Origin: Glaucostegus cemiculus
Taxonomy: Eukaryota
Reading direction: 5' to 3'
Assembly (NCBI GenBank): GCA_976551045.1
Contig: CDPCPM010000073.1
Location: 28,830,001-28,894,000 of the forward strand
Length of the DNA stretch: 64,000 bases
Shown: positions 1,886 to 62,186 of the stretch, one piece after another
Position numbering within the stretch: position 1 is the stretch's first letter
Layout: each line of letters starts with the position of its first letter
Translations under genes and position numbers: made by a program
Notes under the pieces: generated by a model
Seen by the model: only the letters and a program-made list of their open reading frames with translations
Told to the model about the DNA's origin: nothing
The model's database searches: none

Positions 1886-2450
1886 GTTGACAACCAATCA
1901 AACAAGTGTAAGAATTGTCATTGTGCAAACAGAGTAAACTGAATTTGTACGGAAGCTTGATTTTGAGGAATACTTGCTGATTCTTGGTACAAGAAGTGCT
2001 ACCATGTCCCATTTCCTAGCAGTGAAATGTCTGTATTCTAGAAAACCCCTGGAATTGGCAAGAAAGTCTTGAAGATTCACATAGAAGTTAATTACATGCA
2101 TTCCATTCTTTAAAAAAATACACAGGATTGAATACAATTCAATTTTAATGCAATTGGAAAGCAATTTTTATTTCTAATTTAAGCACTTGGGTTATTTTTC
2201 AGGTTATACTTTTTAATGCTAAAATGGGAATAGAAATCAGTGGCAAAACTGGTCCAAATGCAAAAATGAGAAACATACCATTCTTATATGGATGGTTGTT
2301 GGGTCAAGAAAAGAAGCAACAGATCTTTAAAAAAGTCAAATTTTAACAAATAGCAACCTGCAATTTTTTTTTAACACAGTTGATCAACATGTCTCGATGG
2401 TAATTCCAAGGTTCCCAGCAATGTATGCTCAGTACTCAGCAAGACTGCAG

Positions 2451-2555
2451 GGGAGGGAGGACCTATACTGCAAGGATGGGTTACACCTCAACTCAAAAGG
2501 GTCCAGAGTCCTGGCGGGATTGTTTAACATAGCTGTTGGGGAAGGTTTAAACTAA
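2451..2555 (+). pseudogene. CR1 ORF1 C-terminus (SGNH esterase-like)
   Basis: Translates GREDLYCKDGLHLNSKGSRVLAGLFNIAVGEGLN*. DGLHL is the D-x-x-H catalytic motif of SGNH hydrolases found in CR1 ORF1. Confidence 0.85.
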
Positions 2556-2638
2556 TCAAGCAGGGGGATGGGACCCAGAATACTAGGGTAAAAGTAGATA
2601 GAGAAAGGCAGGAGTTAAATAAAAATAGGTCCTAGTTA

Positions 2639-5600
2639 GTGCGTGATAAGGATGGCAAGACGGACAGGCAGGTGATTAATCAGGGTAACATGCTGAATGA
2701 CAATAGTACAGTAAATGAGGATGTTAGGACACAGGATGTTAGACTAGAGTTGGAGGCAAATAAAAAGAAGTCCATGATAGTGAGCAGTCAGGATAGAAAG
2801 AAGGGCAAGGAAATGAAAATTAAGGATAAGTTGCTGAAAAAAGGAAGCGCAACAAAATCAACAGTGGTTAATGAGCTAAAGGTATTATACTTAAATGCAC
2901 GTAGCATCAGGAACAAGGCAGATGACCTAGTAGCACAGCTGCAGATTAATAAATATGACATTGTGGCAATCACTGAGTCGTGGCTGCATGATGGATGTGA
3001 CTGGGAGCTCAATGTCCAGGGGTACACAGTGTATAGGAAGGATAGGCGGGAAGGTAGAGGGGGTGGTGTGGCCATGATGGTTAGTAATGAGATAAAAATC
3101 AATAGAAAGGAAGGACATTAGGTCAGATGAAGTGGAAACTTTATGGGTGGAGCTAAGGAATAGCAAGAGTAAGAGGACAGTTGTAGCTGTTGTATATAGG
3201 CCCCCTAATAGCAATCAGGAGGTAGACCATAAGTTGCGGTTAGAGATAGAAAAGGCATGTCAGAGTGACAATGTTAAGATAATTATGGGTGACTTTAACA
3301 TGAAGGTGGACTGGGAAACCCAGCAAGGCAGCAGTTCTCAGGAGAGCGAGTTTGTTGAATGTTTACGGGACGGCGTTTTGGAACAACTTGTTGATGAGCC
3401 CACCAGGGGATCGGCTGTTTTGGATTGGGTGTTGTGTAATGAACCGGAGGTGATTAGAGAACTAAGGGTAAAGGAACCATTAGGAGCTAGTGACCATAAT
3501 ATGATTGAGTTCAGAATGAAATTTGAAAAGGAGAAGCTGATGACTGGGGTGTCGACATTTCAGTGGAACAAGGGGAATTACAGAAGGATGAGAGAAGAGT
3601 TGGCCCAGATTGATTGGAAATATAAGCTCGCTGGAGGGACAGCAGAACATAAATGGGTGGAATTTAAGCAAGTAATAAGGAAAATGCAGGACAGACACAT
3701 TCCAAGAAAAAAGAAGGTTTTAAATGGAAAAAGGGCACAAATGTGGATAACGAGAGAGGTGAAAGCTAAAATAAGAGCAAAAGGGAGGGCATATAAGGTA
3801 GCAAGAAAAAGCGGGAAAACAGAAGACTGGGAAACTTTTAAGAACCTACAGAAAGAAACTAAGAAGGTCATTAGAAAAAGAAATTATGAAATGAAATTGG
3901 CAGAAAACATTCAAAAGGATACTAAGAGTTTTTTTAAATATATAAGAAGTAAAAGAGAGACGCGGGTTGATATAGGACCGATAGAAAATGATGCAGGAGA
4001 GATTATTATGGATGATAAAGAGATGGCGGAGGTGCTAAATCAGTATTTTGCGTCGGTCTTCACGGTTGAAGATATTAACAATATACCGGTTAGTCAAAGG
4101 TCTCGAGGGACGGAATTAAGGACAGTTAAGGTTACTAGAGAGAAAGTGTTGGGGAAGCTAAATGGGTTAAAGACTGATGTCTCCGGGACCGGATGAGATA
4201 CATCCCCGTGTACTGAAGGAAGTAGCTTTAGAAATAGTGGAGGCATTAGTGATAATTTTTCAGGAATTGATAGACGCTGGAGAGGTTCCGGAGGACTGGA
4301 GGGTCGCGAATGTAGTTCCATTGTATAAGAAAGGTGGGAAACAGCACAAAGGAAATTACAGACCTATCAGTCTTACGTCTGTGGTGGGGAAGATACTAGA
4401 ATCGATCCTCAAGGATGAGGTGATGGGATACCTGGAGGTGCAAGGCAAGATAGGTCCTAGTCAACATGGGTTCGTGAAGGGAAGATCCTGCCTGACCAAT
4501 TTATTGGAGTTTTTTGAAGAAATCTCAGGCAGGGTGGACAAGGGAGAGGCCGTAGATGTAGTGTATTTAGACTTTCAGAAGGCATTCGACAAGGTGCCGC
4601 ACAAAAGACTAATTAGTAAGATGAGAGATCACGGAATAACTGGCAGGATAACAGAATGGGTGGAGAGTTGGCTGGATGGCAGGAAACAGAGGGTGGGAAT
4701 AAAAGGATCCTGTTCTGATTGGCTGCCGGTTACTAGTGGTGTTCCGCAGGGGTCGGTGTTGGGGCCCCTTCTTTTTACCTTGTATATTAATGATTTAGAC
4801 GAAGGAGTTAATGGGTTTGTGGCCAAGTCTGCAGATGACACTAAGATTGGGGGGGGAGTGGAGAGTATTGAGGAGACAGGAAAGTTACAGAGAGACTTGG
4901 ATATTCTAGGAGAATGGGCGAAGAAATGGCAGATGAGGTTCAACGTGGAAAAATGTGCAGTTGTACACTTCGGAAGTAGAAATGGACGGGCAGACTATTA
5001 TCTAGAAGGAGATAAAATTGGAAGCACAGAAGTACAAAGGGACTTAGGGGTGCTCGTACAGGATAACCTAAAGGTTAACCGCCAGGTTGGATCGGCAGTA
5101 AGGAAAGCAAATGCTATGTTGGCATTTATTTTGAGGGGTATAGTATATAAAAGCAAGGAAGTGTTGATGAGGCTATACGGGGTGCTGGTGAGGCCTCACT
5201 TGGAGTACTGTGTGCAGTTTTGGGCCCCATACCTTAGGAAGGATGTGCTGATGTTGGAGAGGGTTCAGAGGAGATTTACTAGGATGATTACTGGGATAAA
5301 AAAGTTTACATATGATGAGCGACTGTCGTCATTTGGAGTGTACTCGTTGGAGTACAGAAGAATGAGAGGGGACCTAATAGAAACATACAAGATGTTGAAA
5401 GGAATGGACCAAGTGAATGTGGTCAAGCTGTTTCCCTTGGTGGGGGAATCCAGGACTAGAGGACACAACCTTAGAATTAGAGGAAGCAGGTTCAAAACAG
5501 AGATAAGGAGGAATTTCTTCAGCCAGAGGGTGGTGAACCTGTGGAACTCCTTACCACAGAAAGCAGTGGAAGCCAGATCATTGGGGATATTCAAGAAGGA

Positions 5601-5667
5601 AATAGATAGATATCTAATTGGTCAAGGTATCAAGGGATATGGAGATAAGGCAGGGATTTGGACTTAG
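2639..5667 (+). pseudogene. CR1 ORF2 (endonuclease + reverse transcriptase), frameshifted
   Basis: EN motifs YLNARSI, ITESW, YRPP, GDFN, SDH. RT motifs PGPD, YRPISL, QHGF, DFQKAFD, GVPQGSVLGP, with SADD in place of FADD. Split by frameshifts near 3110 and 4180 into ORFs 2639-3121, 3132-4196 and 4177-5667. Confidence 0.95.
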
Positions 5668-6352
5668 AATAGTTTTTTTTTCTTATCCTCTTTTTTTCCC
5701 CACCCTCCCTTCCCTTTGGAGCAGACTCGATGGGCCGACTGGTCTGCTTCTGCTCCATTATCTTGTGATCTTGTGAACTCTTTGACCTAGTAACCTTCCT
5801 ACATGAGTATTTCTGTGCACTATACTTCTATAATTTTGCAGTTACTGCAAAGACATAACTGCCAAGCAACTATTTTAGCTCTTTTATAGAGAAAGGATTT
5901 CTGCTGATTAGAACTATTATTTCATATCCTCGATCAGTTTAAGAAAAATCAATGCTTAAAAGCACAAGTTAACACAACTCTCTGTTGCACATAGTACTAA
6001 GCCATGTGTATCATAACAAAGCACATTGAACACAAGTATTATAACTCAATTTTCACAGTGATGTCACCAAAGTAAACTTGAGAACTAATCTGATTTTTCT
6101 CCACAAAAAATTGGGAAAATTCTGGGATTTATATGTGAAAATTGGAAGAAAATAATTTGAACTTTGATTTGGAAATAATGATATGAGTGATTCTGAATTT
6201 GCTAAAATAGGTTATTTTTCTAAACTGATAAGGTACATGATGTCCTACAAACTTTGCAGTTTCTTAAACTGACAAACAGGCAAATACATTTTCCACAATA
6301 GCCTTATTTGTAGATGCAATCACTGCAGATGCCCTTGTTCTTAGACAAAGCT

Positions 6353-7565
6353 ATAGAGTTTTACAGCGCAAGAACCTTCAGCCCAACTCATCCAAGCTGA
6401 CCTGCCACCATCTATGCTAATCTCATTTATGTGCATTCGGCCCATATCCCTCTGCTCACTTCCTGTACAAGTACCTGTCCAAATACCATTAAACATTGGA
6501 ATTGTACCTGCCTCTATCACTTCTGTTGGCAGCTTGTTCTATAAAACCACCACACTCTGTGGAAACTCTTGACCCTCAGAACTCCTTTAATTTTTTTCCC
6601 TTTTACTTTGAACCTATGTCCTTTAATTTTAGACTCCCCTACGTGAGGAAATAGGGTCAATATTCAGATGCTATCTATGGCTCTCATAAATTAATAAACC
6701 TCTTTATAAAGTCACCCCTCATCCTCCAACATTCCATTGAGAATAAACCCAACCTATCTAATCTTTCCTTATAACTACAGCCCTCCATTCCAGGCAGTGT
6801 CCTGGTGAATCTTTTCTGCATTCTCTCTCATGTTATCACATCCTTCCTGTAGGGTGGTGACCAGAACTGTACACAATACTCCAAGTGCGGCCTGACCAAT
6901 GTTTTGCACAGCCGCAACATGACATCTCAACTCTTATACCCAGTGCCTCGGCCTATGAATGCAAGCATGCCAAATGCCTCCTTCACCACCCTATCCACCT
7001 GTGTCGCCCTTTTCGAAGAGCCATGAACTTGCACTATGAAGTCCCTCTGTATTTTAACGCCCCTGAGGTCCCTGCCATTAACTGCATATGTCCTGTTAGT
7101 ACTTGATCTCCCAGAATGAATTACCTCACACTTACATGAATTAAATTCCATCTGTGACCGCTCTGCCCAACATTCCAGCTGATCTGTGTCCATCTGTATC
7201 CTTTCATAACATTCTTTACTATCTACAAATCCACCAGTTTTTGTGTCATCAGCAAACTTACTATGTCCACCTACATTCTCTACTAGTTATGACAATGGTC
7301 CCAGCACTGATCCCTGTGGTACACAACTTGTTACAGACTTTCAGTCAGAGGGTCACTATCCTCTGCCTTCTGTCACCAAACCAATTTTGGATTTAGTTTG
7401 CCAATACACCTTGGGTCCCATGTGCACTTTCTGGACCTACTTACCATGCGGGACTTTGTGAAATGCCTTGCTAGAATCCATGTAAACCATGTCCCCTGCC
7501 CTGTCTTCATAGGATTTCCCCTGCCCAAAGCCATATTGACTCCTAATCAGTCCCTGCTTTTCCAT
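6353..7565 (-). mobile_element. CR1 LINE, 5'-truncated, decayed
   Basis: Minus-strand ORF 6927-7193 (WAERSQMEFNSCKCEVIH...GMLAFI) is homologous to the RT C-terminal region of the 4177-5667 ORF. CR1 3'UTR at the left end. Confidence 0.9.
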
Positions 7566-8520
7566 GTGACTTTTGTATCATGGATATCCTTGGGTACAGT
7601 CCTCTCCCTTAAACAACAATAGAAGAAGTTAAAGGAGATGTTGCAAGAGGCCTTGCTTTGAGTTTGTATGGAATTGCATTCTAGCCTAGGGCTTTGCCTG
7701 TAGAAAGCAAGGTGATAATTTTATTAAGCATCTCAATTAGGTGCAGTGTCTACCTCTTCCATTACAGGCCGAGTCTATGGTGTTAGATCCTCCTCACTGC
7801 TGACATTTTCCACGGGTTACAACTTGAGGCAGTGCTCCACCCATTTCTTCATTTCCTTTCAATTGTTGATGACTGTGCCATTTTCAATGGAGCTATTTTC
7901 TCTGCTGATGGCCTTGTTGTCTCTTTAAGTGGATCTAGCACTTCATGTCTCAGAGGACAATGGGATGCTCTGACAGAGCTGCACCCCACTTTTGTGAATG
8001 CAGCACCCAGCAGTCCGTGAGACATTATCAGTCTTCTTATTTGTGTTCCCTTATGTAGTTGATGAGGGCAAATTGCTGAGTTTCAATGATAGTTTCATGA
8101 CAGCAATGGTGAATAGATCAGTCTGCATTTTTCCATCTTGTTCTCTATATTTTGAGAGTGTGGTGTCATAAATAGGATTTCAAATTTAATTCCATCTCAC
8201 TTCTGCACTCTGTGTGGGAATACCCAAGAGCACTTGCTCCAGAGATGGGTCTTCTGGGTTTTATCTGGGTAGGCTACATCTTGTCTGGGTACAAACCAGG
8301 GAGTGATTTATGCCATAATCTGGCACTGTAATAGATGTTGGTATTGAGAATGTTGTTAAGAAAGTAACATTGCATAATGACCAGATCCATTTTCTGCCAG
8401 TCTCCTGACCTTGGATGTCTCCAGGGATGGACTGGAATATTGACTGGGGCTGATACTGCTGATGTTGTTGCTGCAGAGTGATTTTGGGACGAAATCTCAC
8501 TTGCATCATATCAGCTGTTA

Positions 8521-14880: not shown

Positions 14881-15751
14881 AGAAATTGAGGTACATAGAA
14901 CAATACAGCACAGGAACAGGCACTTCAGCCCACGATGTTGTGCCAAACCAGTTACATTAGTAATAAAATGCCCAATTAAACGAATCGCTTCTGTCTACAC
15001 AATGTCCATATCCTACCCTCTCCCTCACATTGATGTGCCTAGCTAAGAGCTGCTTGAATGCCCTTATTGTCTTTGCCTCCACCATCACCCCTGGCCGCGC
15101 AGTCCAAGCACCCACCACTCTCTATGTAAAAAAAAACCACGCCCCACACATTTCCTTTGAACTTACCCCCATCACCTTAAATGCATGCCCTCCGGTATTC
15201 CAACCCTGGGGCAAAGATACTGGCTGTCTACTCTATCTACACCTCTCATAATCTTTTAAACCTCTGTCAGATCTCCCCTCAGCATCCACCACTCCAGAGA
15301 GAACAGACCAAGAACGTCCAACCTATCCTCATAGCACAGGCCCTCACATCAGACAGCATCATAGTAAACCTCTTCTGCACCCTCTCCAAAGCCTGGACAT
15401 CCTTCTTATAATGGGGCAATCGGAACCAAATGCAATACTCTTGATGCAGCCTAACTAAAGTTTTATACAGCTGCAGCATAACTTTCTGACTCATGAATTC
15501 ATTGCCTTCACTATTGAAAGCAAGCATGCCATATGCTTTCTTTACTGCCCTATCAACCTGTGTAGCCACTTTCAGGGAGCTATGAACTTGGACCCCAAGA
15601 TCCCTCTGCTCATCCACACTGTTAAGGGTCTTGCCATTAACAGTGTACTGTCTCTTTACATTTGATCTCCCAAAGTGCAACACTTCACATTTGGCTGGGT
15701 TGAACTCCATCTGCCATTTCCCCACCCATGTCTGCAGCTGATCTATATCCT

Positions 15752-16036
15752 GTGTAGCGGTTAGCATAATGCTATTACAGCACCAGTGACCTGGGTTCAA
15801 TTCTGGCAGCTGTCTGTATGGAGTTTGTACATTCTCCCTATGTCTGTGTGGGTTTCCTCTGGGTGCTGTAGTTTCCTCCCACATTCCAAAGATGTACAGG
15901 TTAGGAAGTTTTGGGCATGCTATGTTGGCACTGGAAGCAGGGTGACACTTCGGGGCTGCCCCTAGAACACCATACACAAAAGATACATTTCACTGTGTGT
16001 TTCGATGTACATGAGACTAATAAAGATATCTTATCT
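15752..16036 (+). mobile_element. V-SINE with Rex1/Babar-like tail, nested in CR1
   Basis: Collinear and highly similar to 10175-10473, same (TATCT)n end. Confidence 0.9.
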
Positions 16037-16194
16037 TTGCCAGTCTTCTATGCTATCCACAGCACCACCAATCTTTATATCATCTGCAAACCTATTAAGC
16101 CACCCATGTACATTTTCATCCAGGTAATTTAGATACATCACAAACAGCAGAGGTCCCAGTATGGATCCCTGAGGAACACCACTACTCACAGACC

Positions 16195-16635
16195 TGTGGA
16201 AGTTGACCCACACTGTAATAAATCAGACAACAGCAGAACCAAAGAATATACGATTAATGCTTTATTAGTTTAATGCTAGCAGGAGTGAGGAATACAGAAA
16301 AAGAGTGAACAGTGTAACCCGAGCTCTGTACTGATCCCACTCGGAAATCTGTGGTTATCGCCTCTACTCTTATACCCACTTCGTGAGAAACCACCGTGGT
16401 GCACTTACTAAGGCATTTGCTTACAGCAAGCTTTTAGCAAAACAAGCTGTGTCTTAAAAAACTTCTTTCTTTCTCACTCACACCTGGACATTTTTACAGC
16501 CATAACTATAGTCACCCCATGGTTGAGGCACTATCACATCATGGGAAGAATAACTGACTGTGGGAAGAATAGCTACACGCCATTAATCCTTACGTTGCCA
16601 GTCGTTAACCCTTGCATTCCCAGTTATCTTTTACA
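16195..16635 (-). mobile_element. Solo LTR (441 bp) of an LTR retrotransposon or endogenous retrovirus
   Basis: Begins TG and ends CA. Flanked by a 4-bp direct repeat GACC (16191-16194 and 16636-16639). Imperfect terminal inverted repeat TGTGGAAG / TGTAAAAG. Minus strand has TATAA (about 16370) upstream of AATAAA (about 16262). Confidence 0.85.
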
Positions 16636-17324
16636 GACCTCTAGCTAGAATTAGTCCCATTGATCACTACCCCCTGTCTTCCATGGGCAAGCCAGTTCTG
16701 AACCTAAAGGGCCGATTTACCATGGATCTCATGCATCTTAATCTTCTTGATGAGCTTCCTTTAAGGGACCTTGTGAAACGCCTTACTTAAATCCATGTAG
16801 ACAACATCCACAGCTCTACCTTCATCAATCACCCTTGTGACCTCATCAAAAAACTCAAATCAAGTTAGTAAGGCACGACTTGCCCTGCACAAAGCCATGC
16901 TGACTGTCCCTAATTAGGCTATGGTTTTCCAAATGCTCATAAATCTTAGCCCTAAGAATCCTCTCCACTAACTTCCCTACCACTGACATGAGACTCTATA
17001 GTGGTCTATATATGAGACTCTAATTGTGGTCTATAGTGACCACAATTATCTCTGTTTCCCTTCTTGAATAATGGAAAAACATCAGCTGTTCACCAGTCCT
17101 CCAGGACCTCGTTTGTGGCTAGAAAGGACATGAAGATATTGGTCAAGGCCCCAGAATTTGAAAATTAAGAAATTGAAAAGAGAAACAGAACCTAGGGAAG
17201 AGAGAGAGAATTATTTTTCTGGCAGACCATGTCATTAGTGTCATTAGCAAGAATGGTATCAGAAGATGAAAATATTTTGATGGGCCCCGAGCTAAAATAT
17301 TTGAGGACATTTTCATATATTAAC

Positions 17325-35437: not shown

Positions 35438-36537
35438 TCACACAGCATGGAAAACGGTTCTTCGGCCCATTGAGTTGCACTGACCATCAAGCGCCCATTT
35501 ACACCAATCCCACACGAACTTCATTTTATTCTGCCTGCATTCCAACAGTTCCCCCAAGATTCTACCACTCACCTACACAGCAGGGGCAATTTACAGTGGC
35601 CAATAAATCAACCAACCTGCATGTCCTTGGGATGTAGGGTGAAACCAAAATATCCAGAGGGAACCTACATGTTTAGAACCATAGAACAATACAGGCCCTT
35701 CAGTCCAGCTTGTTGTGCCGACCTTCAAACCACACCTAAGACTATCTAACCCCTTCTTCCCACGTCACTTTATTTTAATTATTTCCTCCATATGCTTATC
35801 TAACAATCTCTTGAACTTGACCAATGTATCAGCCTCCACCACCACCCCAGGCAGCACATTCCTTGCACCAACCACTCTCTGGGTGAAAAACTTCACTCTG
35901 ACATCTCTCTTAAACTTCCCACCCAATATGTTAAAGCCATGCCCTCTTGAGCATTGGTGCCCTGGGGAAGAGGCTCTGGCTGTCCACTCTATCTAGTCGT
36001 CTTAATATTTTGTATACCTCTATCATGTCTCCCCTCATCCTCCTCCTCTCCAATGAGTAAAGCCCTAGCTCCTTTAGTCTCTCCTCATAATCCATACTCT
36101 CTAATCCAGGCAGCATCCAGGTAAATCTCCTCTGCACCCTCTCCAAAGCCTCCACATCGTTCCTTTAATGAGGCGACCAGAACTGGACACACTACTCCAA
36201 GTGTGGCCTAACCAGAGTTTTGTAAAGCTGCATCATCACTTTGCGGCTCTTACACTTGATACCACGACTTATGAAAGCTAACATAAGCTTTCTTAACTAC
36301 CCTTTCCACCTGCAAGGCAACTTTTAGTGATCTGTGGTAGGAACCCGCAGATCCCTCTGCTCCTCCACACTGCCCAGAATCCTGCCATAAACCTTGTACT
36401 CTGCCTTGGAGTTTGTCCTTCCAAAGTGTACAGGGAGTACGTGTAAACTCTATACAGACACCATCTGAGCTCAGCGTTGAACCCAGATTGCTGGTGCGGT
36501 GAGGCATATGCTCTACTAATTGTGGCACTCTGCCACC
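35438..36537 (-). mobile_element. HE1-like V-SINE split by a CR1 insertion (SINE parts 35438-35671 and 36430-36537)
   Basis: The V-domain sequence breaks at ...gaacctacatg and resumes at acagggagtacgtgtaaactc. tRNA-like head at the right end, CR1-type tail at the left end. Confidence 0.8.
35674..36430 (-). mobile_element. CR1 3' fragment nested in a SINE
   Basis: ORF 35931-36155 ALERVQRRFTWMLPGL...SLERRRMRGD. Confidence 0.9.
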
Positions 36538-36804
36538 TTAAGTAAGGAATTTAAGATATTTGTCCAACCAGATTTTAGATATTAGAGGTTCATGCAGGGA
36601 AGTGGCACAGAAATGAAGGATCTTATGTTTTAATTACATATATAACTGAGAAGAATGGGTATGGTGAAAGAGTGGAAAGGTTCAATAAATGATGTACTTG
36701 GATTTTAAGGAAAATCTACAAATCTTATTGTGGAAAGTGGAGTGGAAGAAGTACGATATTTGTAGTGTTCCTTTTTTGTTTCTGTACCATTTAAGTTCTT
36801 GTCT

Positions 36805-37625
36805 TCATTTATTATGATTGTGATTAATGAAGGTGGAAAAGGCCCGATTGCTAAATTTGCTGATGACACAAAGGTAGGTAGGAAAGAAGGCTCTGATGAT
36901 CTGTAAAATAGGATGTAATGTGGGAAAATGGGGTACGTTTGTTTTGATAAGAAAACTAAATGCTGAGAGACTGTAGAGCTCTGAGATGCAGAAGGATTTG
37001 GGTGTGTTCATGTACACTTTACTAAAAGCTAGTATGCAGGTAGAACAAGTAACCAGGAAAGTTAAGAGTTTTAGTGTTTATTGCCAAAAGAATTGAATAC
37101 AAAAGCTAAGCTTCAGTGAGAACATATCTGGATTATACTTATAATATTGGTCTCCCTATCTAAGGAAGAATGTTAGTGCATTGGGAGCAGTTCAGAGAAG
37201 GTTCACCTGGAATTGGCTGATTGTCTTATGAGAAAATATTGGTCAGGTTAGGCTTGTAGCTGCTGGAGTTAGAAGAATGAGAGGGAACTTGATTGAAACA
37301 GTTGGGTGTAAACATGGTCAGTATGGAGACAACATTTACTCTTGGAGCATCTTGAACTGGAGGTCACCGTTTAAAAATAGGGTGTTTCCCATTTAGGCAG
37401 AGATGAGTTTTTTTCCCCCTCTGAGAGGGATGTGAGTCTTTGGAACTCTTTTCCTCAAAGGGCCATGCAAGCGCAGTCTTTGAATGTTTTGAGGCAGAGG
37501 CAGATAGATATCTGGTAAACAAGAGGATGAAAGGCTACTGCAGGTGGGTGAGAATGTGAAGAGTCATGATCTTATTAAATGGTGGAGCAGGTTCAAGGGG
37601 CCGAGTGGCCTATCCTTTATCTGCA
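36805..37625 (+). mobile_element. Old CR1 3' fragment
   Basis: aaatttgctgatgacacaaag (KFADDTK), gttcagagaaggttcac, and 3'UTR ggagcaggttcaaggggccgagtggcc. Confidence 0.8.
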
Positions 37626-41435: not shown

Positions 41436-42040
41436 TAGAGTCATAGAGTCATACAGCATGGAAACAGGCTCTTTGGCCCAACTTGTCCCTGTTGACTGTT
41501 TTGTCCAGTGAGCTAGTCCTATCTGCCCATGTTTGGCCCATAGATCTCTAAACCTCTCCTATCCATGTACTTATCGAGATGGCTTTTAAATGTTGGTGAT
41601 GTGCCTGCCTCAACCACTATTTCTGGCCACTCATTCCAAATATGCACCACCATTGTGTGAAGAAGCTGCCCCTTTTATCTCTTGCCTCTGATCTTAAACC
41701 TATGCCCTCTTGTTTCTAGCACCCGCTCCCAGGGAAAAAGACTGTGCTTTCACGCTATGTCCCTTAAGATCTTGTATATCTTTATCAGCTCACCCCTCAA
41801 TCTCTACGTTTCAAGGAATATGGTCCTGGTCAATACAATCTCTCTCTGTAGCTTAGGTCCCCAAGTCCAGGCAACATCCTGGTAAGTCTTTTCTGCACTC
41901 TTTCTAGTTTAATAACCTCTTTCTTATAACAGGGTAACCAAAACTGTACAAAATACTCCCAAGTGCGGCTTCAGCAATGTTTTATATACCTGCAGTATAA
42001 CTTATACTCAATGCCTTGACTGATGAAGCATGCCAAACTT
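41436..42040 (-). mobile_element. CR1 3' fragment
   Basis: (TAGAGTCA)2 tail, acagcatggaaacaggc, caggcaacatcctggtaa. Confidence 0.85.
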
Positions 42041-42149
42041 TGAGAAATAATTTAATGACAGAAGCACAGAGCCCTAAAATACAGAAGGTTTATAAGAAAT
42101 ACTGGAGTACCAAGGATCCAGTGCAAATGAGGAAATAAAATAAAAGTGT

Positions 42150-43765
42150 TAATAAAGAAGTACTACTAAAGAAGTTAATGAACTAGGAAACTGATAAACC
42201 CCAAGGACCTGGTGACCTACATTCCAGAGTTTTGAAAAAAGCAGCTATGGAGATGGTGGATGCTGTGGTTATCATTTTCCAAACTTCTGTAGATTCTTGA
42301 ATAGAGCCTGCAGGTTGTCATGTGGAAAGTGTGACCCCAGTATATAAGGAGTGAAAGACAAAATCCTGAATTACTGTAGTTAGCTTGACATTAGTAGTTG
42401 GAAAATTGCTGGAGTCTATATTTTAAAAAAAGGATGTGATATTGAGACATTGAGTAAATGATAATATGATTGAACAGAATCAACATGGATTAATGAAAGG
42501 GAAATTATATTTGACTAATCAATCAAGTTCTTTTAGAGTGTATCAAGTGGAGTAGATGAGAGGGAATAGGTGCATGTGGTGGGTTTGGGTTTTCAGAAGG
42601 CTTTTCATCTGGTCTCAGTTGGGAGATTGTTGAACAAGTTAATGCTCATGGAATTGGAAGTAATATACCAGCATGGATTGAGAGTAGGTGAACAGAAAGA
42701 AAACAAAGAGTAGGTGTAAATGCTTCTTCTCAGTTGGCAGGCTGTGCCTGGTAGGGTACCACAGGCATTTATATCAATGATTTAGCTGAAGGGACCGAAT
42801 ATGATACTTCCAAGCTCGCTGATGATATGAAGTTCAGTGATAATGCGAGTAGTGATGAGGATAGAAAGTAACTTCAAAGGTACAGGAAAGCTGCGTGAAT
42901 GGGCAACATCATAGTAGATGCAGTACGGGGTGTTAAAGTCCACTTCAGTAGAGGAACAGACTCTTTGACATCCAAAGGAACCTGAGTGTCCTTGTACATG
43001 GATTAATTAAAGCGAAATTATATTTGACTAATCAATCAAGTTCTTTGAGTGTGTATCTAGTTGAGTAGATGAGAAGGAATGAGTGGATATGGTGGGTTTG
43101 GAATTTCAGAAGGCTTTTGGAGTCACTGGAAGCTGACAAGCAGTTACATCAGGCACTTAGAAAGGCGAATGGTAAGTTGGCCTTTATTATTGCACTCAAA
43201 TCCTCTTAATAATAAAGACATTGCATACCAATTATATAGAGCCTTAATGAAACCACATCTGGAATATTGTGTATAATTTTGATCATTTTACCTAAAAATG
43301 ATATATTTGCTGTGGAGGGAATGCAATAAAAATTCACCAGACTGGTTCTTGGTACTGCAGGTGTGTCACATGAGGAGTGTTTGAACAGGCAAAGCCTCTC
43401 TATTCTATCAAGTTGTGAAGAATGAGAGGTGACCTCATTGAAACATATAAAATTCACAAGGGTAGATACAGGAAGGAATTTTGCTGTGGCTGGGGAGTCT
43501 AGAACTAGAGGTTATCGGCTCAAAATAATTTCAGCCATTTTGGATTGAAATGAAGAGAGTAGTGACATTTTTAGAATTCTCTATCCAAGTGCTGTGGAGG
43601 CTTGGTCATTGCATTCAAAAAAGAGATTGATAGATTTCTGGATATTAGAGGAAAACGGGATATGAAGATAGGGAGGAAAATGGTGTTTCGGCAGACGATC
43701 GGCCATGATATTGTTGAATGGCGGAGCTGGCTCAAGAGGCAAGATGGAATACTACTTCTTCCTTG
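42150..43765 (+). mobile_element. Old CR1 (RT through 3'UTR) with an internal duplication of about 120 bp
   Basis: ccaaggacctggtg, caacatggat, tttcagaaggcttt, gctgatgat, KPHLEYCV, AFKKEIDRFL. Confidence 0.85.
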
Positions 43766-44429
43766 TGATATTTTCTTTGCACGAGGCACCAGAAAATTAG
43801 TTTTTATTTGGTGCCAGAAAGATTAAGCATTAATTTAGAATTTGGCCTTCTTAAAAACTCAAACACAGTTCCTTCAACTAGGTGCAACATACTCACTGTC
43901 CTTTTTTTTATAGTCACGATAGTTAGCCATTAATTGACTGATTTAGTCTGATTAGTCCAAAGAAGGCAGCAACAGAGCACTCTGCGGAGGAGTAGGAGAT
44001 CTCAGAAGTTAATTTGTGAACTGTCACGTTAACTGCACGTCTTCCCAAGAGCTTACTGTCAGGTTATCTTGCATTGTAACAGTGAGTGCTGATATCTTTG
44101 CCATTTTTCTCTGGAAATTTCAGGCTTCAATACCTGAACTCGTTTTTTTTGCTCTTCCTTTTCTTCAGAGTGGAAGTGGAGACACTACATTTTTAAATAA
44201 TATATTGCAGTGTGTAATTCTGCTTTAGAACAATAACTTTAAATGTATTAATGAAAACCTATAAGAAAATTCAACAATGAGATAACCAGTGCAATCACCA
44301 TATTCCAGAATTTGCTGCTACAAATGCTAAGAGCTGAAGTTGTTATTCACTCTTATGACTGTGCCACAAACTTGCACAAGAAATTGATGGAAGTACCAGC
44401 TGATGATGGGGAAAGATTAACATGGCATC

Positions 44430-44925
44430 CATAGTTCTAGAGTTGCACAGCATAGAAACAGACTCCTCAGTCCAACTTGTCCATGTTGACCAAGATGTTT
44501 ATCCAAGATAGTCCCATTTGCCTGTGTTTGGCCCATATCCTTCTAGAAACCTGTTTAAGTGTCTTTTAAACACTGTAGCCAGCTGCACAGCTTCCCCGGC
44601 AGCTCATTCCAAATATCCACCAACCTGTGTGGAAAAAGTTGCCTATGGGATCCCTTTGAAATCTCACCCGAAATCTATGTCCTCTGGTTTTAGACTCCAC
44701 TATACTATGAAAAAGACAGTAACCATTCATTTTATCTATACCTGTAATGATTTTATGTACTTTGACAAGGTCACTCCTTAGCCTCCTATGCTCTAGGGGA
44801 AGCAGTCCCACCCTATCCAGCCCTTCCTTATAACTCAAGCCCTCAGTCCCGGCAACATCCTAATGAATCTTTTCTGAACTGTTTCCAGCTTAATGATATC
44901 CTCCTTATAGTTAGTGACCAGAAAC
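44430..44925 (-). mobile_element. CR1 3' fragment
   Basis: ORF 44566-44838 SYKEGLDRVGLLPLEHRRLRSDL. Confidence 0.85.
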
Positions 44926-45225
44926 TTGGCAAATGATAAGACTGACATTTTTAGGTATTTAGATGGAAGAAAATTTGAAACAGCAAAAGTATGAGTTGGA
45001 GTCAATTTAGATAACAAACAAGTATAAAAAGAAGTACACATAAAGAGAGAGAAAGGAAAAACAAGACAAGAGTATTTTTAAGATCGAAAAATATTTAGGA
45101 ACAATCTGCAGGAATGTGAACTTACTGTTTAAGTAATTACTTTCTTCCATGTGTGATGTTAATCTCAAAAACATAATTATGAAGTTAACAGGATTTTTAT
45201 ACCATGAAATAATAACCCTAACTTT

Positions 45226-47088
45226 CACAGCACATAGAACACTACAGCACAGTACAGGCCCTTCGGCCCACAATGTTGTGCCGACATTTTATCCTACTCT
45301 AAGATCTATCTAACCCTTCCCTCCCACATCGCCACCTATTTTTCAATCATTCATGTGTCTATCTAAGCGTCTCTTAAATGACCTTAATGTATCTACCCCC
45401 ACAACCTCTGCCGGCATTGCGTTCCATGCACCCACCACTCTGTAAAAAAAAAGTACCCCTGACATCCCCCTTATACCTTCCTGCAATCACTTTAAAATTA
45501 TGTGATAGCCATTGTCGCCCTGGAAAAAAGTCTCTGACTGTCCACTCGATTTGTGCCTCTTATCATATTGTACGCCTCTATCAAGTCACCTCTCATCATC
45601 CTCTTCTCCAAAGAGAAAAGCCTTAGCTCACTCAATCTATCCTCATAAGACATGCTCTTCAATCCAGGCAACACCCTGGTGAATCTCCTCTGCTCCTTCT
45701 TTGAAGCTTCCACATCCTTTCCATAATGAGGCAACCAGAACTGAACGCAATACTCCAAAGTGTGGTCTGACCAGAGTTCTGTAGAGCTTCAACATCACCT
45801 CGCAGCTATGGAACACAATACCTCGACTAATGAAGGCCTTCTTAACAACCCTATCGACCTGTGTAAGAACCTTGAGGGATCTCTGGACGTGGTCTCCAAG
45901 ATCCCTCTGTTCCTCCGCACTGCTGAGAGCCCTGCCATTAACCTTGTATTCTGCCTTCAAATTCAGTCTCCTGAAGTGTATCACTTCACACTTATCTGGG
46001 TTGAATTCCACTGGTCACCCGACCTCCAGGCAGAATATGCTCCATCTACCACCACCCTCTGTCTTCTATGGGTGAGCCAATTCTGAATCAACACAGCCAA
46101 GTTTCCCTGGATCCCATGCCTCCTGACTTTCTGAATAAACCTTCCATGAGGAATCTTATCAAACGCCTTACTAACATCCATGTACACCACATCCACTGCT
46201 CTACCTTCATTAATGTGCTTTGTCACCTCCTCAAAGAATTCAATCAGGCTCATGAGGCACGACCTGCCCCTCACAAAACCATGCTGACTGTCCCTAATCA
46301 GTCTATGCTTCTCTAAATGCCCATAAATCCTGTTTCTAAGAATCTTCTCCAGTAATTTGCCCACCATTGAAGTAAGACTCGCTGGTCTGTAATTCCCAGG
46401 GTTATCCCTACTTCCTTTCTTAAACAAAGGAACAATATTTGCCACCCTCTAATCGTCTGGCACTACTCCTGTGGCCAATGAGGACACAAAGATCATCAAA
46501 AGGTGCAGCAATGTCTTCCCTAGCTTTCCGTAATAACCCTCGATATATCCCATCTGGTCCTGGTGACTTATCTATCTTAATGTCTTTCAGTAGTTCCAGT
46601 ACATACTCTTTCCTCACATCGACATGCCCTAGCATATCAGTCTGTCATACGCCATCCTCACAAACGTCAAAGTCTCTGGTGAATACCGAAGCAAATAATT
46701 CATTAAGGACCTCCCCTACCTCTTCCGACTCCAGGCCTATTTCCTCTTTTATCCCTGATTGGTCCTACTCTCACTCTATTCATCCTCTTGTTCTTCATAT
46801 ATTGTACATGTAGAATGCCTTGGGGTTTTCCTTGATCCTACTTGCCAAAGACTTCTCATGTCCTCCTCTAGCTCTCCTAAGTCCATTCTTAAGCTCCTTC
46901 CTGGCTACCTTGTAACTCTCCAGAGCCCTGTCTGATTCATGCTTTCTGAACCTTAGGTAAGCTGCTTCCTTCCTCTTGACAAGATATTCCACATCTCGTG
47001 TCAACCACGGTTCCTTCACTCTACCATCCTTTTCCTGCCTTAATGGGACAAACCTATCCAGAGCAGGACAAACTTATCCAGAGCTGGC
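45226..47088 (-). mobile_element. CR1 LINE, 5'-truncated, with an internal deletion removing the GVPQGS-FADD block
   Basis: ORFs 45981-46445 (PGNYRP, DSQHGF, SKAFDK) and 45643-46011 join directly at about 46010. Possible TSD AACTTT at 45220-45225 and 47089-47094. Confidence 0.92.
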
Positions 47089-53589: not shown

Positions 53590-54835
53590 AAGAGATTCCT
53601 TGAGAAAGGGACAATCTCTGGTTAACAAAGGAGGTTAAGGATACTGTTAAATTGAAAAGTAGGGCACACAAAGTGGCAGGTGCTGGTGGGGGCCAGAGGA
53701 CAGGTAAATTTTCAGGATCCAGCAGGGAAAGACTAAAACGCTCATAGGGGAAAAATATTAATATATCAAATATTGTTCTGTGGGTAAGTAAAAAGGAAGA
53801 AGGCAGCGAAGGTAAATGTGGGACCTCCAGAGAATGAGGCTGGTGAATTAACAACAGGAAACAAAGAAATGGTAGATACGGTAAATCAGTTGTTTGCATC
53901 AGCCTTCAATGTGGAGGACACTGCCAATACAGGTGACCTCTGTGTTATGTGGAGGGGGAGGTCATAATCTTAGAAAACAGTCTGTATCGTGATTTTCCAT
54001 AACATGAAGCCACATTACCTGCACATACATCAAGAAAGGCAAAATGAAAAAAAGTGAATCTTGTGTTCATTTATTTAGATTTTTTCATGTAAATTCTATG
54101 AGAGTAAGATTTATTCCATTATCTCAAAATTTTGGATAGTGACTCGTGACTTCTGTAAGGGTGAATTTCCATACCTGAATGGCTGTAACACAGGGGTTGC
54201 TTGTATCCTGAAGATGACAGGTGGGCTCGTTTTGAATAATGTGGAATGACTTGTAAAAAAAAATCCCAATTACAAGGGATAAAGTAACTAAAGGCGACGA
54301 GTCTCTGGTACCTGGTGGCCTGCACCCCCAGATTTCAAAGGAGGTGGCTGCAGAGACAGTGGACCCATTTGTGAAAATCTTTCAAAACTCACTAAATTCT
54401 GGGAGGGTACCAGGAGATTGAAGAACAGCCAATGTGACTCCTTTGTTCAGAAATGGAGGAAGACAGAAGGCAGGGAACCATTGGCCAGTTACTTTAACAT
54501 CTATTGTTAGCAAGATGCTCAAGTCAACAATCAAAGAGAAAATAGCTAGTTATTTAGGAAAGCTGAATATAATCACACCAGGTCAACATGGTTTATAAAA
54601 GGTAAACATGTTTGACAAATTTTTGTTTCTTTTTATTCTTTGGGGATGTGATAGGGCGAGTTGATAGAGAGGAACCTCATTTAAAATTGAGGTGCATAGA
54701 AATTTATTTTCTCAGAGGATAGTGAATCACTGGAATTCGCTGGCCCTGAAGAAGACCTGATGCCACCAAAGATCAGCAGAGCAGGCTTGAAGGCCTGGTG
54801 ACTACCTCCTGCTATTTTCTTGTGTTTTATGATGT
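53590..54835 (+). mobile_element. Old CR1 fragments interrupted by a MITE
   Basis: tttgcatcagccttcaatgtggaggac, ctggtacctggtggcctgcacccc, aatgtgactcctttgttc and caacatggttt are collinear with CR1 ORF2. Confidence 0.75.
53930..54203. mobile_element. Tc1/mariner-pogo (Tigger-like) MITE, 274 bp
   Basis: Imperfect TIRs CAGGTGACCTCTGTGTTA and TAACACAGGGGTTGCTTG. TA on both flanks (53928-53929, 54204-54205). Host CR1 sequence is continuous across it. Confidence 0.75.
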
Positions 54836-61100: not shown

Positions 61101-62186
61101 CCAGAGTGTTACTGCAGCACAGAATTGACCAGTTATATATAATGATTATATAACTGACAGATTTAACTTCTGTCCAGAAGTACTTATTAGTTTTTGAAAA
61201 CTGCACGCCTAAGTAATTTTTCAAACAATCATTTGCAATTTTGGAAAGTCTTTTAAAAGTAGCATTTTAAATTTGGTGTTTGTTGGTTTTAAGTACTTTT
61301 GTCTGTTAAATATTGTGATATATTTTAAAACCTTGTTAATATTTTTGTTGAACTGATTTACGTCTGCATGATTCATTGAATGTTATTCAACTGTGAAGTT
61401 TTTAGAACTGGGATTTTTGTTTTAAGAAACAGAAAAATGTACTGATGAGACGATATCAAGATCAATATCCACTATCGGTTGGGGCAAGGAAGAAAATTAA
61501 TGTTCTAAGTGTGGTCCATATCACTTTTTGAGACTACTCTGGTTCAGTACCTCAACAGTTGGTTTAAGATAAGATTGTGTTTAGGCATGATTTTCTAACT
61601 GCCCTTTTCAATTTTGTTCACTCTTCTTCTGAGGTTTATTCTGGGGTAGGTTTGGTCGTGCAAGGTTTCAAGGCACTGAGTGCTCTCTGATGCATTGGCC
61701 ATGTGAGCTTTCCACTGGTATGAGATTAGATAGTAGATGTTGGGAAGTTATTTGACATGATCTGCCCTAGCCTAAACTTTTACTCATGGTAGTTACGCAA
61801 GTCTAGTAGGGGGTCACTGAATAACAGTCATGCTTCCTGGGTGTGAATGTACAGAATTCTTTCTAAAACAGGATAAGGTATTGGGCTAACTGTTGGCCAT
61901 ATAAATTGGGAGCAGGAGTTGGTCACTCAGCCTCTCAAGTCTGCTCTGCCATTCAGTGAGACCATGGCTGATCTGACTGTAACCTCACTTGGCATTCCTG
62001 TCTGCCATAGTAACCTTTCACCTCCTTGCTGATCAAGAATCTATCTACCTCGGCCTCAAAAATATTCAAAGCCTCTGCCTTCACTGCCTTTTGAGGAAGA
62101 AATCTAAAGATCACAACCCTCAGAGAGAGAAAACAAAATCCCTTCACTTCTGTCTTAATTGGGCAAATTCTTATTTATAAACAGTT

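Follow-up and report, generated by a model that had tools for sequence, protein, structure and literature searches.

A dead copy of a widespread LINE, CR1, in the 64,000-nucleotide stretch of Glaucostegus cemiculus DNA that we analysed (hereafter the window) carries at the end of ORF1 a recoding-type signal that, judged by comparison of sequences, is real and strongly conserved. This signal is most likely a programmed -1 frameshift site with an atypical stimulator, and we put the probability that such frameshifting yields an ORF1-linker-EN-RT fusion in CR1 at roughly 0.8. In the abundant CR1 elements of vertebrates, the same putative signal of heptamer, stop and G run ends ORF1 in nearly every lineage examined. 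The features of the copy in the window are listed here, all on the forward strand.

2450..5779, + strand: 5'-truncated, inactive CR1 LINE copy (alignment to copies L192 and L194)
2451..2555, + strand: 3' end of ORF1, comprising the final 34 codons and TAA stop of an SGNH/GDSL esterase, with the D-G-x-H loop and the terminal Leu-Asn
2525..2527, + strand: final stop of the ORF2 (-1) frame upstream of the heptamer
2546..2552, + strand: slippery heptamer U-UUA-AAC in X-XXY-YYZ phase
2553..2555, + strand: ORF1 stop, adjoining the heptamer (CTA, Leu, when read in the -1 frame)
2555..2875, + strand: charged -1-frame linker of 107 codons following Phe-Lys-Leu; stop-free in the window family
2563..2572, + strand: conserved G5-N2-G3 motif (+11 to +20 counted from the heptamer), a candidate stimulator on the 3' side
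2633..2635, + strand: TAG private to the window copy (a sense codon in 29/29 other copies)
2876..5667, + strand: ORF2 (APE endonuclease, reverse transcriptase), interrupted by frameshifts near 3093 and 4178
5668..5779, + strand: 3' UTR with a family-specific C-rich tract, terminal stem-loop and short ATCTTGTG tail repeat (sequence inspection)

The copy in the window is dead. It is 98.4% identical to L192, a copy elsewhere in the genome with an intact ORF2 (1042 codons open). Compared with L192 it has the TAG at 2633, one base inserted near 3093, 6 nt missing near 3878 and 2 nt missing near 4178. The full-length ORF1 of a sister copy, L016, matches SGNH esterases (PF13472, E 3.6e-16; PDB 4c1b, E 9.5e-30), and ORF2 contains the domains PF14529 (APE endonuclease) and PF00078 (RT). 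On inspection of the sequence, the element lacks poly(A) and ends in a stem-loop followed by a short tandem tail, an ending that is a hallmark of CR1 LINEs. By its esterase ORF1, its APE-RT ORF2 and its 3' stem-loop and tail, the element is classed as a CR1 LINE; the named proteins closest to it come from rays, skates and sharks. In the window family (L003, L012, L018), a 22-residue unit (AVPLENRYLILDSVGEDD...) of the ORF1 linker occurs once, twice or three times. Elsewhere in the window, both strands hold many older RT fragments of CR1 type (6696-7568, 15121-17149, 35789-37538, 41525-47058, 53607-54751 and 62010-62171), and a tblastn search found no ORF1 end retained among them.

Positions 2541-2555 read GAA GGT TTA AAC TAA, with T-TTA-AAC at 2546-2552, and the in-phase X-XXY-YYZ heptamer that an earlier note had placed directly before the ORF1 stop is indeed present. 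The same note had stated that the -1 frame is shared with an open reading frame running into the endonuclease. This is borne out by ORF 2636-3121, which lies in the -1 frame relative to the ORF1 remnant ending at 2555 and reaches the endonuclease start LKVLYLNARS at 2876, 330 nt (110 codons) past the first base of the heptamer. Upstream, the ORF2 frame opens just 6 codons ahead of the heptamer, and no ATG occurs in those 6.

To examine the family of this copy, we used a DNA search of its own genome in which 2174 candidates were found, 40 were scored and 30 loci were returned, the window copy among them; these loci are the copies nearest to the query and not a random sample. All 29 other copies have a heptamer-to-EN distance of 330 nt, and the exact heptamer and the stop are each present in 28 of the 29. 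The TAG at 2633-2635 had been described as the sole block to the -1 frame between heptamer and EN, in an already mutated copy. We agree with this description, as all 29 other copies have AAG at this codon with an open frame, and there is no fixed stop among them. The 9-mer TTTAAACTA is found three times in the window against an expectation of 1.5, and at least three occurred in 13 of 100 shuffles. Taken alone, the 9-mer is thus no more frequent in the window than chance would give, and the case stands on position and conservation. Its two further matches (50207 and 56048) lie away from CR1 junctions and were rejected as candidates.

Junctions of other families were collected by searching the genome with four divergent ORF1 proteins (30 loci each among 123-133 matches), and metagenome contigs were searched with an alignment (41 loci, most stopping short of the junction). 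Each junction was anchored by an esterase profile ending six residues before the end of ORF1, so the heptamer played no part in finding junctions. Among 165 anchored junctions, two of which are counted twice (L155 and L189 overlap), exactly TTTAAAC precedes the first ORF1 stop in 125, a sequence one base off does so in 14 and some other sequence in 14, and 12 have no stop in reach. EN could be located for 142 junctions and lies in the -1 phase in 116, in frame 0 in 19 and in +1 in 7. The out-of-phase single copies that were inspected from these 26/142 are old or indel-bearing members of in-phase families.

Clustering of the junctions gave 28 groups. Seven groups of at least five copies are in the -1 phase and stop-free. 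Two old groups appeared out of phase with 6 and 4 copies; at 30 copies each, their column majority is -1 and open to EN, with 15/30 and 14/30 single copies still in phase and open. By column majority, the heptamer, the -1 phase and a stop-free frame were therefore found in 9/9 families with at least five copies. Heptamer-to-EN distances in these nine families are 123/129, 126, 132, 132, 162, 192, 294/303, 306 and 330 nt, and metagenome contigs from other animals gave 99, 99, 132 and 141. Close pairs differ by clean 9- and 6-nt indels, and more distant pairs by ragged gaps that individually are not multiples of three. Conservation of heptamer and phase across families with diverged linkers, as the frameshifting proposal foresaw, is thus what we observe, in all nine multi-copy families and in most single junctions (116/142).

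The first base of the heptamer is T in 22/23 representatives and G in one. Variants reading G-TTA-AAC occur at L034, L113, L137 and L155, and in L034, a distant lineage, the start of the G run is also about three bases earlier. The one DNA copy of the distant lineage covered here is open and AUG-less from heptamer to EN, and look-alikes of this lineage are mostly from molluscs, which we treat as a lead only. We take L032, L035, L038, L042 and L048 to be bird-type by their sequence. No relatives were found in the viral and prokaryotic-genome collections searched.

We assessed constraint on codons with 18 lineage representatives, picked after seeing the anchored junctions (a 19th, without a stop, was dropped), which are 28-67% identical to the window family. 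In 31 esterase columns the same residue is found in at least 80% of the 18 lineages, and only two of these columns have a fixed codon: the final Leu, TTA in 18/18, and the Asn, AAC in 18/18. The share of the top codon in the remaining 29 columns is 0.31-0.94, and TTA accounts for 17% of ORF1 Leu codons. The free synonymous change in these two codons that would have spoken against a slippery site was accordingly not seen in the 18 representatives, and nucleotide conservation at the heptamer exceeds what the protein requires.

The Leu-Asn end could instead be kept for the structure of the esterase, with the phase inherited by chance. Leu-Asn does end 48/57 anchored homologues (query included) and, in the distant lineage, 103/112 anchored proteins among the best 120 of 1745 matches, and named lizard, turtle and frog proteins share it; all of these proteins are related by descent. 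A structural role is contradicted by the fixation of only these two codons among the 31 conserved columns. The tail from the D-G-x-H loop to Leu-Asn varies from 26 to 39 residues, and the persistence of the end while this distance varies indicates that it is tied to the stop and not to the fold. Chance inheritance of phase would have to account for at least 10 different linker lengths, all multiples of three, and we find this alternative scarcely credible. A test of the residue before Leu (codons unable to end in T in 1/81 distinct tails) looked supportive of a slippery site and was dropped because positions -6 and -7 are almost as depleted (3/81 and 2/81).

No ATG was found in the ORF2 frame upstream of the heptamer in 21 representatives; the distance from the opening of this frame to the heptamer is 1-9 codons in 19 of them and 35 and 37 codons in the other two. 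Downstream, an AUG before EN is absent in 4/9 multi-copy families. The five families with an in-frame linker AUG, the window's included, have it at codons 48, 5, 28, 15 and 52, positions that are not conserved. As the first in-frame AUG of the window family lies 48 codons from the heptamer, the argument from a missing start codon comes from its sister families. Some copies of the 126-nt family also have a linker AUG (L208). In the intact copy L212 (1030 open codons) the conserved EN Asn is residue 104 and the first Met comes 61 residues later, at 165; in the intact copy L210 (978 codons) the first Met is at 47 and this Asn at 48.

These data bear on a second alternative, in which ORF2 is translated from a conventional linker AUG by reinitiation, leaky scanning or an IRES, and the heptamer and G motif serve as a reinitiation or RNA-packaging signal. 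The five families with a linker AUG are in keeping with it, as are the 306-nt family and two metagenome copies, whose AUG lies within 4-5 codons of the heptamer. UGGGA, the core of the calicivirus TURBS, is also found within the G motif in many families. Intact copies of the four families lacking an AUG before EN would, however, lose the start of EN, and no stop interrupts the frame ahead of the first AUG. The shuffle probability of a stop-free run up to the first AUG or EN is 0.03 for the window family, 0 of 2000 for the 294-nt family and 0.02-0.10 for the other AUG-less groups; we did not use the product of these values because the 16 groups were picked from in-phase clusters. In addition, UGGGA is absent in the 123-, 126- and 99-nt families and sits downstream of the stop, whereas reinitiation elements, in the portion of 10.1101/2023.09.29.560040 used here, lie upstream. 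We therefore regard initiation at a linker AUG as improbable.

A missing AUG alone is no proof of frameshifting, because in mammalian L1 any sense codon can replace the ORF2 AUG, according to the relevant passages of PMC1965478. We therefore weighed AUG-independent termination-reinitiation of the kind proposed for mammalian L1, in which realignment at or near the heptamer would produce a free ORF2p in the -1 frame. Such a process agrees with the flexible start of L1 ORF2 and would account for the AUG-less families too. No base separates the stop from the heptamer, the frame is open from that point on, and the title of a cited paper attributes expression in rat L1 to reinitiation rather than frameshifting. 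Reinitiation nevertheless offers no reason for an exact in-phase X-XXY-YYZ heptamer, including the freedom of its first base (T or G), and conservation of a near-cognate start codon is not seen within the first 12 codons, where the 294-nt family has none. Given this balance, we consider reinitiation, the leading alternative, unlikely and favor -1 frameshifting. Pooled pN/pS of the linker in sister families (0.97 in the -1 frame versus 0.89 and 0.87 in the other frames) is about 1 in all frames; it reveals no amino-acid selection on the linker in the -1 frame and is uninformative on frame.

An RNA-level route is a further alternative, with ORF2 joined or freed by splicing, polymerase slippage or an internal promoter. 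Inspection of the sequence provides an AG-GT junction ahead of the heptamer in the window family and a TATA-like TTTAAA. The base before the heptamer is C in 8/23 representatives, which removes the GT, and the stop, which across families is TAA or TAG, is TAA in 7/23, which removes the AG acceptor. The A run is just three long, and an internal promoter would bring no gain for the AUG-less families. We consider an RNA-level route very improbable. Together, the open frame, the non-random phase and the fixed TTA and AAC codons support the proposal of the earlier note that a -1 frameshift gives an ORF1-linker-EN-RT fusion.

The proposal had also included a G-rich stimulator at the usual spacing. 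The quoted G-rich segment (CAGG...) starts at 2561, with a G5 run at 2563-2567 and a G3 run at 2570-2572, giving a spacer of 10 nt. G is present at +12 and +14 in 22/22 representatives, at +11 in 20, at +13 in 21 and at +15 in 19, and at +18, +19 and +20 in 20, 19 and 18 of the 22; columns +21 to +33 after the heptamer are variable. Some of the conserved Gs (+11, +14 and +20) fall on third positions of -1-frame codons, which points to constraint on the RNA. The G-rich motif thus survives as a conserved element, but not as a structured stimulator at the usual spacing, since its spacer is 10 nt and no conserved hairpin accompanies it.

Folding of 2553-2640, which had been suggested as a check, gave -13 kcal/mol (z -0.92), unlike a classical stimulator. 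Local folding z values in 10 families range from -2.0 to +0.9, with a value below -1 in one only, and consensus folding of nine lineages gave -0.09 kcal/mol. With folding tools that do not model pseudoknots, no conserved hairpin, and no stem of a stem-loop or pseudoknot 5-9 nt downstream, was found, and positions 2400-3000 have no Rfam matches at E 1. A long-range downstream partner of the G motif above shuffles was not detected either, and upstream partners are not common to families (a comparison made with no shuffle control). A pyrimidine- and C-rich tract in the 3' UTR (5690-5722; L192-L195), present in the window family alone, could pair with the G motif. Pairing of the window-family 3' UTR with the motif (-20.0 kcal/mol) falls inside the shuffled range of -19.3 to -25.2 and the tract is absent from other families, and we rejected this long-distance pairing. 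Among the top duplex partners of the G motif in 6/10 families is a coding stretch for P-G-P-D-x-I-x-P, about 1,470 nt before the ORF2 stop (about 4190-4210 in the window). Its pairing with the motif is not above shuffles, and its recurrence is probably due to proline codons.

The G-quadruplexes that stimulate frameshifting, as described in part of PMC3919603, have four G tracts, the first of them 6-8 nt past the heptamer. CR1 has two conserved G tracts only (G5 and G3) after its 10-nt spacer, and we set this class of stimulator aside, although an intermolecular or two-tier G-quadruplex may form at the motif. With low confidence, we infer that the motif is a protein-bound or non-canonical G element. 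What the alignments do show is a short conserved motif, unstructured and about 11 nt downstream of the putative slip site, the kind of element seen in PRRSV, where nsp1-beta and poly(C)-binding protein act on CCCANCUCC, 11 nt 3' of the shift site, according to the section of PMC5009743 on this virus. Both are short unstructured motifs at the same distance, the G run of CR1 starting at nucleotide 11, but the CR1 motif is G-rich and CCCANCUCC is C-rich, the -1 heptamer of PRRSV is of another type, and a binder in CR1 is hypothetical.

Other known systems share different parts of the CR1 arrangement. The U_UUA_AAC site of a coronavirus (IBV), as given in the portion of PMC5009743 on that virus, has the same heptamer in the same phase and likewise places the upstream ORF in excess over the polymerase; CR1 differs in having no conserved pseudoknot or stem-loop and in having its stop directly after the heptamer. 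The APE-type non-LTR elements TRE5-A and TRE3-A of Dictyostelium are said, in the part of PMC5911963 consulted, to need a -1 frameshift for ORF2. They belong to another clade and have another ORF1. Mammalian L1 and SART1 resemble CR1 in having a bicistronic LINE RNA and a scarce ORF2 product (relevant sections of PMC1965478, PMC3592465 and PMC10275272), but their termination-reinitiation gives a free ORF2p, whereas the layout of CR1 points to a fusion. The canonical CR1 LINEs of vertebrates described in the main text of PMC13343379 have the same esterase ORF1 and APE-RT ORF2.

In the mechanism that we propose, most ribosomes would stop at UAA or UAG and release ORF1p (about 307 aa). On a minority, the Leu- and Asn-tRNA would re-pair on UUU and AAA, CUA would be read next, and translation would continue. 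The product predicted for the window family is a fusion of about 1,350 aa (307 + 1042 - 2), and the charged, unconstrained linker would span about 30-107 residues across families. ORF1p would thereby be made in excess of ORF2p, as in gag-pol expression, at a level set by the fraction of ribosomes that slip. The pause would most likely come from G5-N2-G3, acting either as a site for a bound factor or as a non-canonical G structure, with a contribution from the neighboring stop; this is the weakest step, and if frameshifting occurs we would give it even odds. Passages of PMC5009743 rank U_UUA_AAC with the heptamers most prone to shifting on mammalian ribosomes and mention one case in which a stop just 3' of the shift site is needed for frameshifting.

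Haas 1997 reportedly describes, by its title, two closely spaced ORFs, and may take up frameshifting. LINE ORF2 expression is usually explained by reinitiation, and the translation of CR1 ORF2 is not addressed in the literature searched. We found no description of CR1 frameshifting among the papers searched. The main text of PMC13343379 has no occurrence of the terms frameshift, overlap, slippery, translation or start codon, the portion of PMC3905857 covered does not contain the word frameshift, and in the covered portion of PMC11835228 the word concerns retroviruses. If the frameshifting proposal is correct, ORF2p would be an esterase-tethered fusion made at a set ratio, which would explain the start-codon-less ORF2 of many CR1s and alter both the annotation of CR1 proteins and their expression for study. 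It would also add a eukaryotic frameshift signal with no structured stimulator, the candidate signal being about 30 nt long. A broader and more tentative proposal, which we think possible but doubtful in full, is that in most vertebrates the dominant LINE produces its RT fused to ORF1 in gag-pol fashion, by way of a -1 frameshift signal that has persisted across lineages ranging from cartilaginous fish to amniote-type and probably invertebrate ones. A host protein that binds G runs, or ORF1p itself, would recognize the structure-free G5-N2-G3 as the stimulator, so that a cellular retroelement would use protein-stimulated frameshifting, possibly with autoregulation.

A small number of copies have ORF1 and ORF2 in one frame. 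Seven single copies (L292-L298; G000 C302, C101, C208, C326, C92, C76 and C56) contain indels, mostly in the G run before the heptamer, that bring ORF1 in frame with ORF2, and L292 has an open frame of 1002 codons beginning at the esterase loop. Two RefSeq models of Hypanus sabinus (P0035 and P0088) are of the same kind, and a search with the longer protein found one fused annotated copy among 6 matches. These in-frame copies may be mutations or homopolymer errors. We rejected a permanently fused family, as the seven long-frame copies carry different private indels and show no fused subfamily.

Among the protein records, three CR1-type esterases are labelled Pseudomonas, Symploca and Gammaproteobacteria (P0022, P0078 and P0099) and are probably animal contamination in bacterial assemblies. 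Pieces of CR1 ORF1 also occur in host gene models (P0019, P0072, P0080, P0088 and P0091-P0093), among them RPS24, TMEM204, ABHD14A, HAO2, STS, mesothelin and others, where they reflect either exonisation or annotation error.
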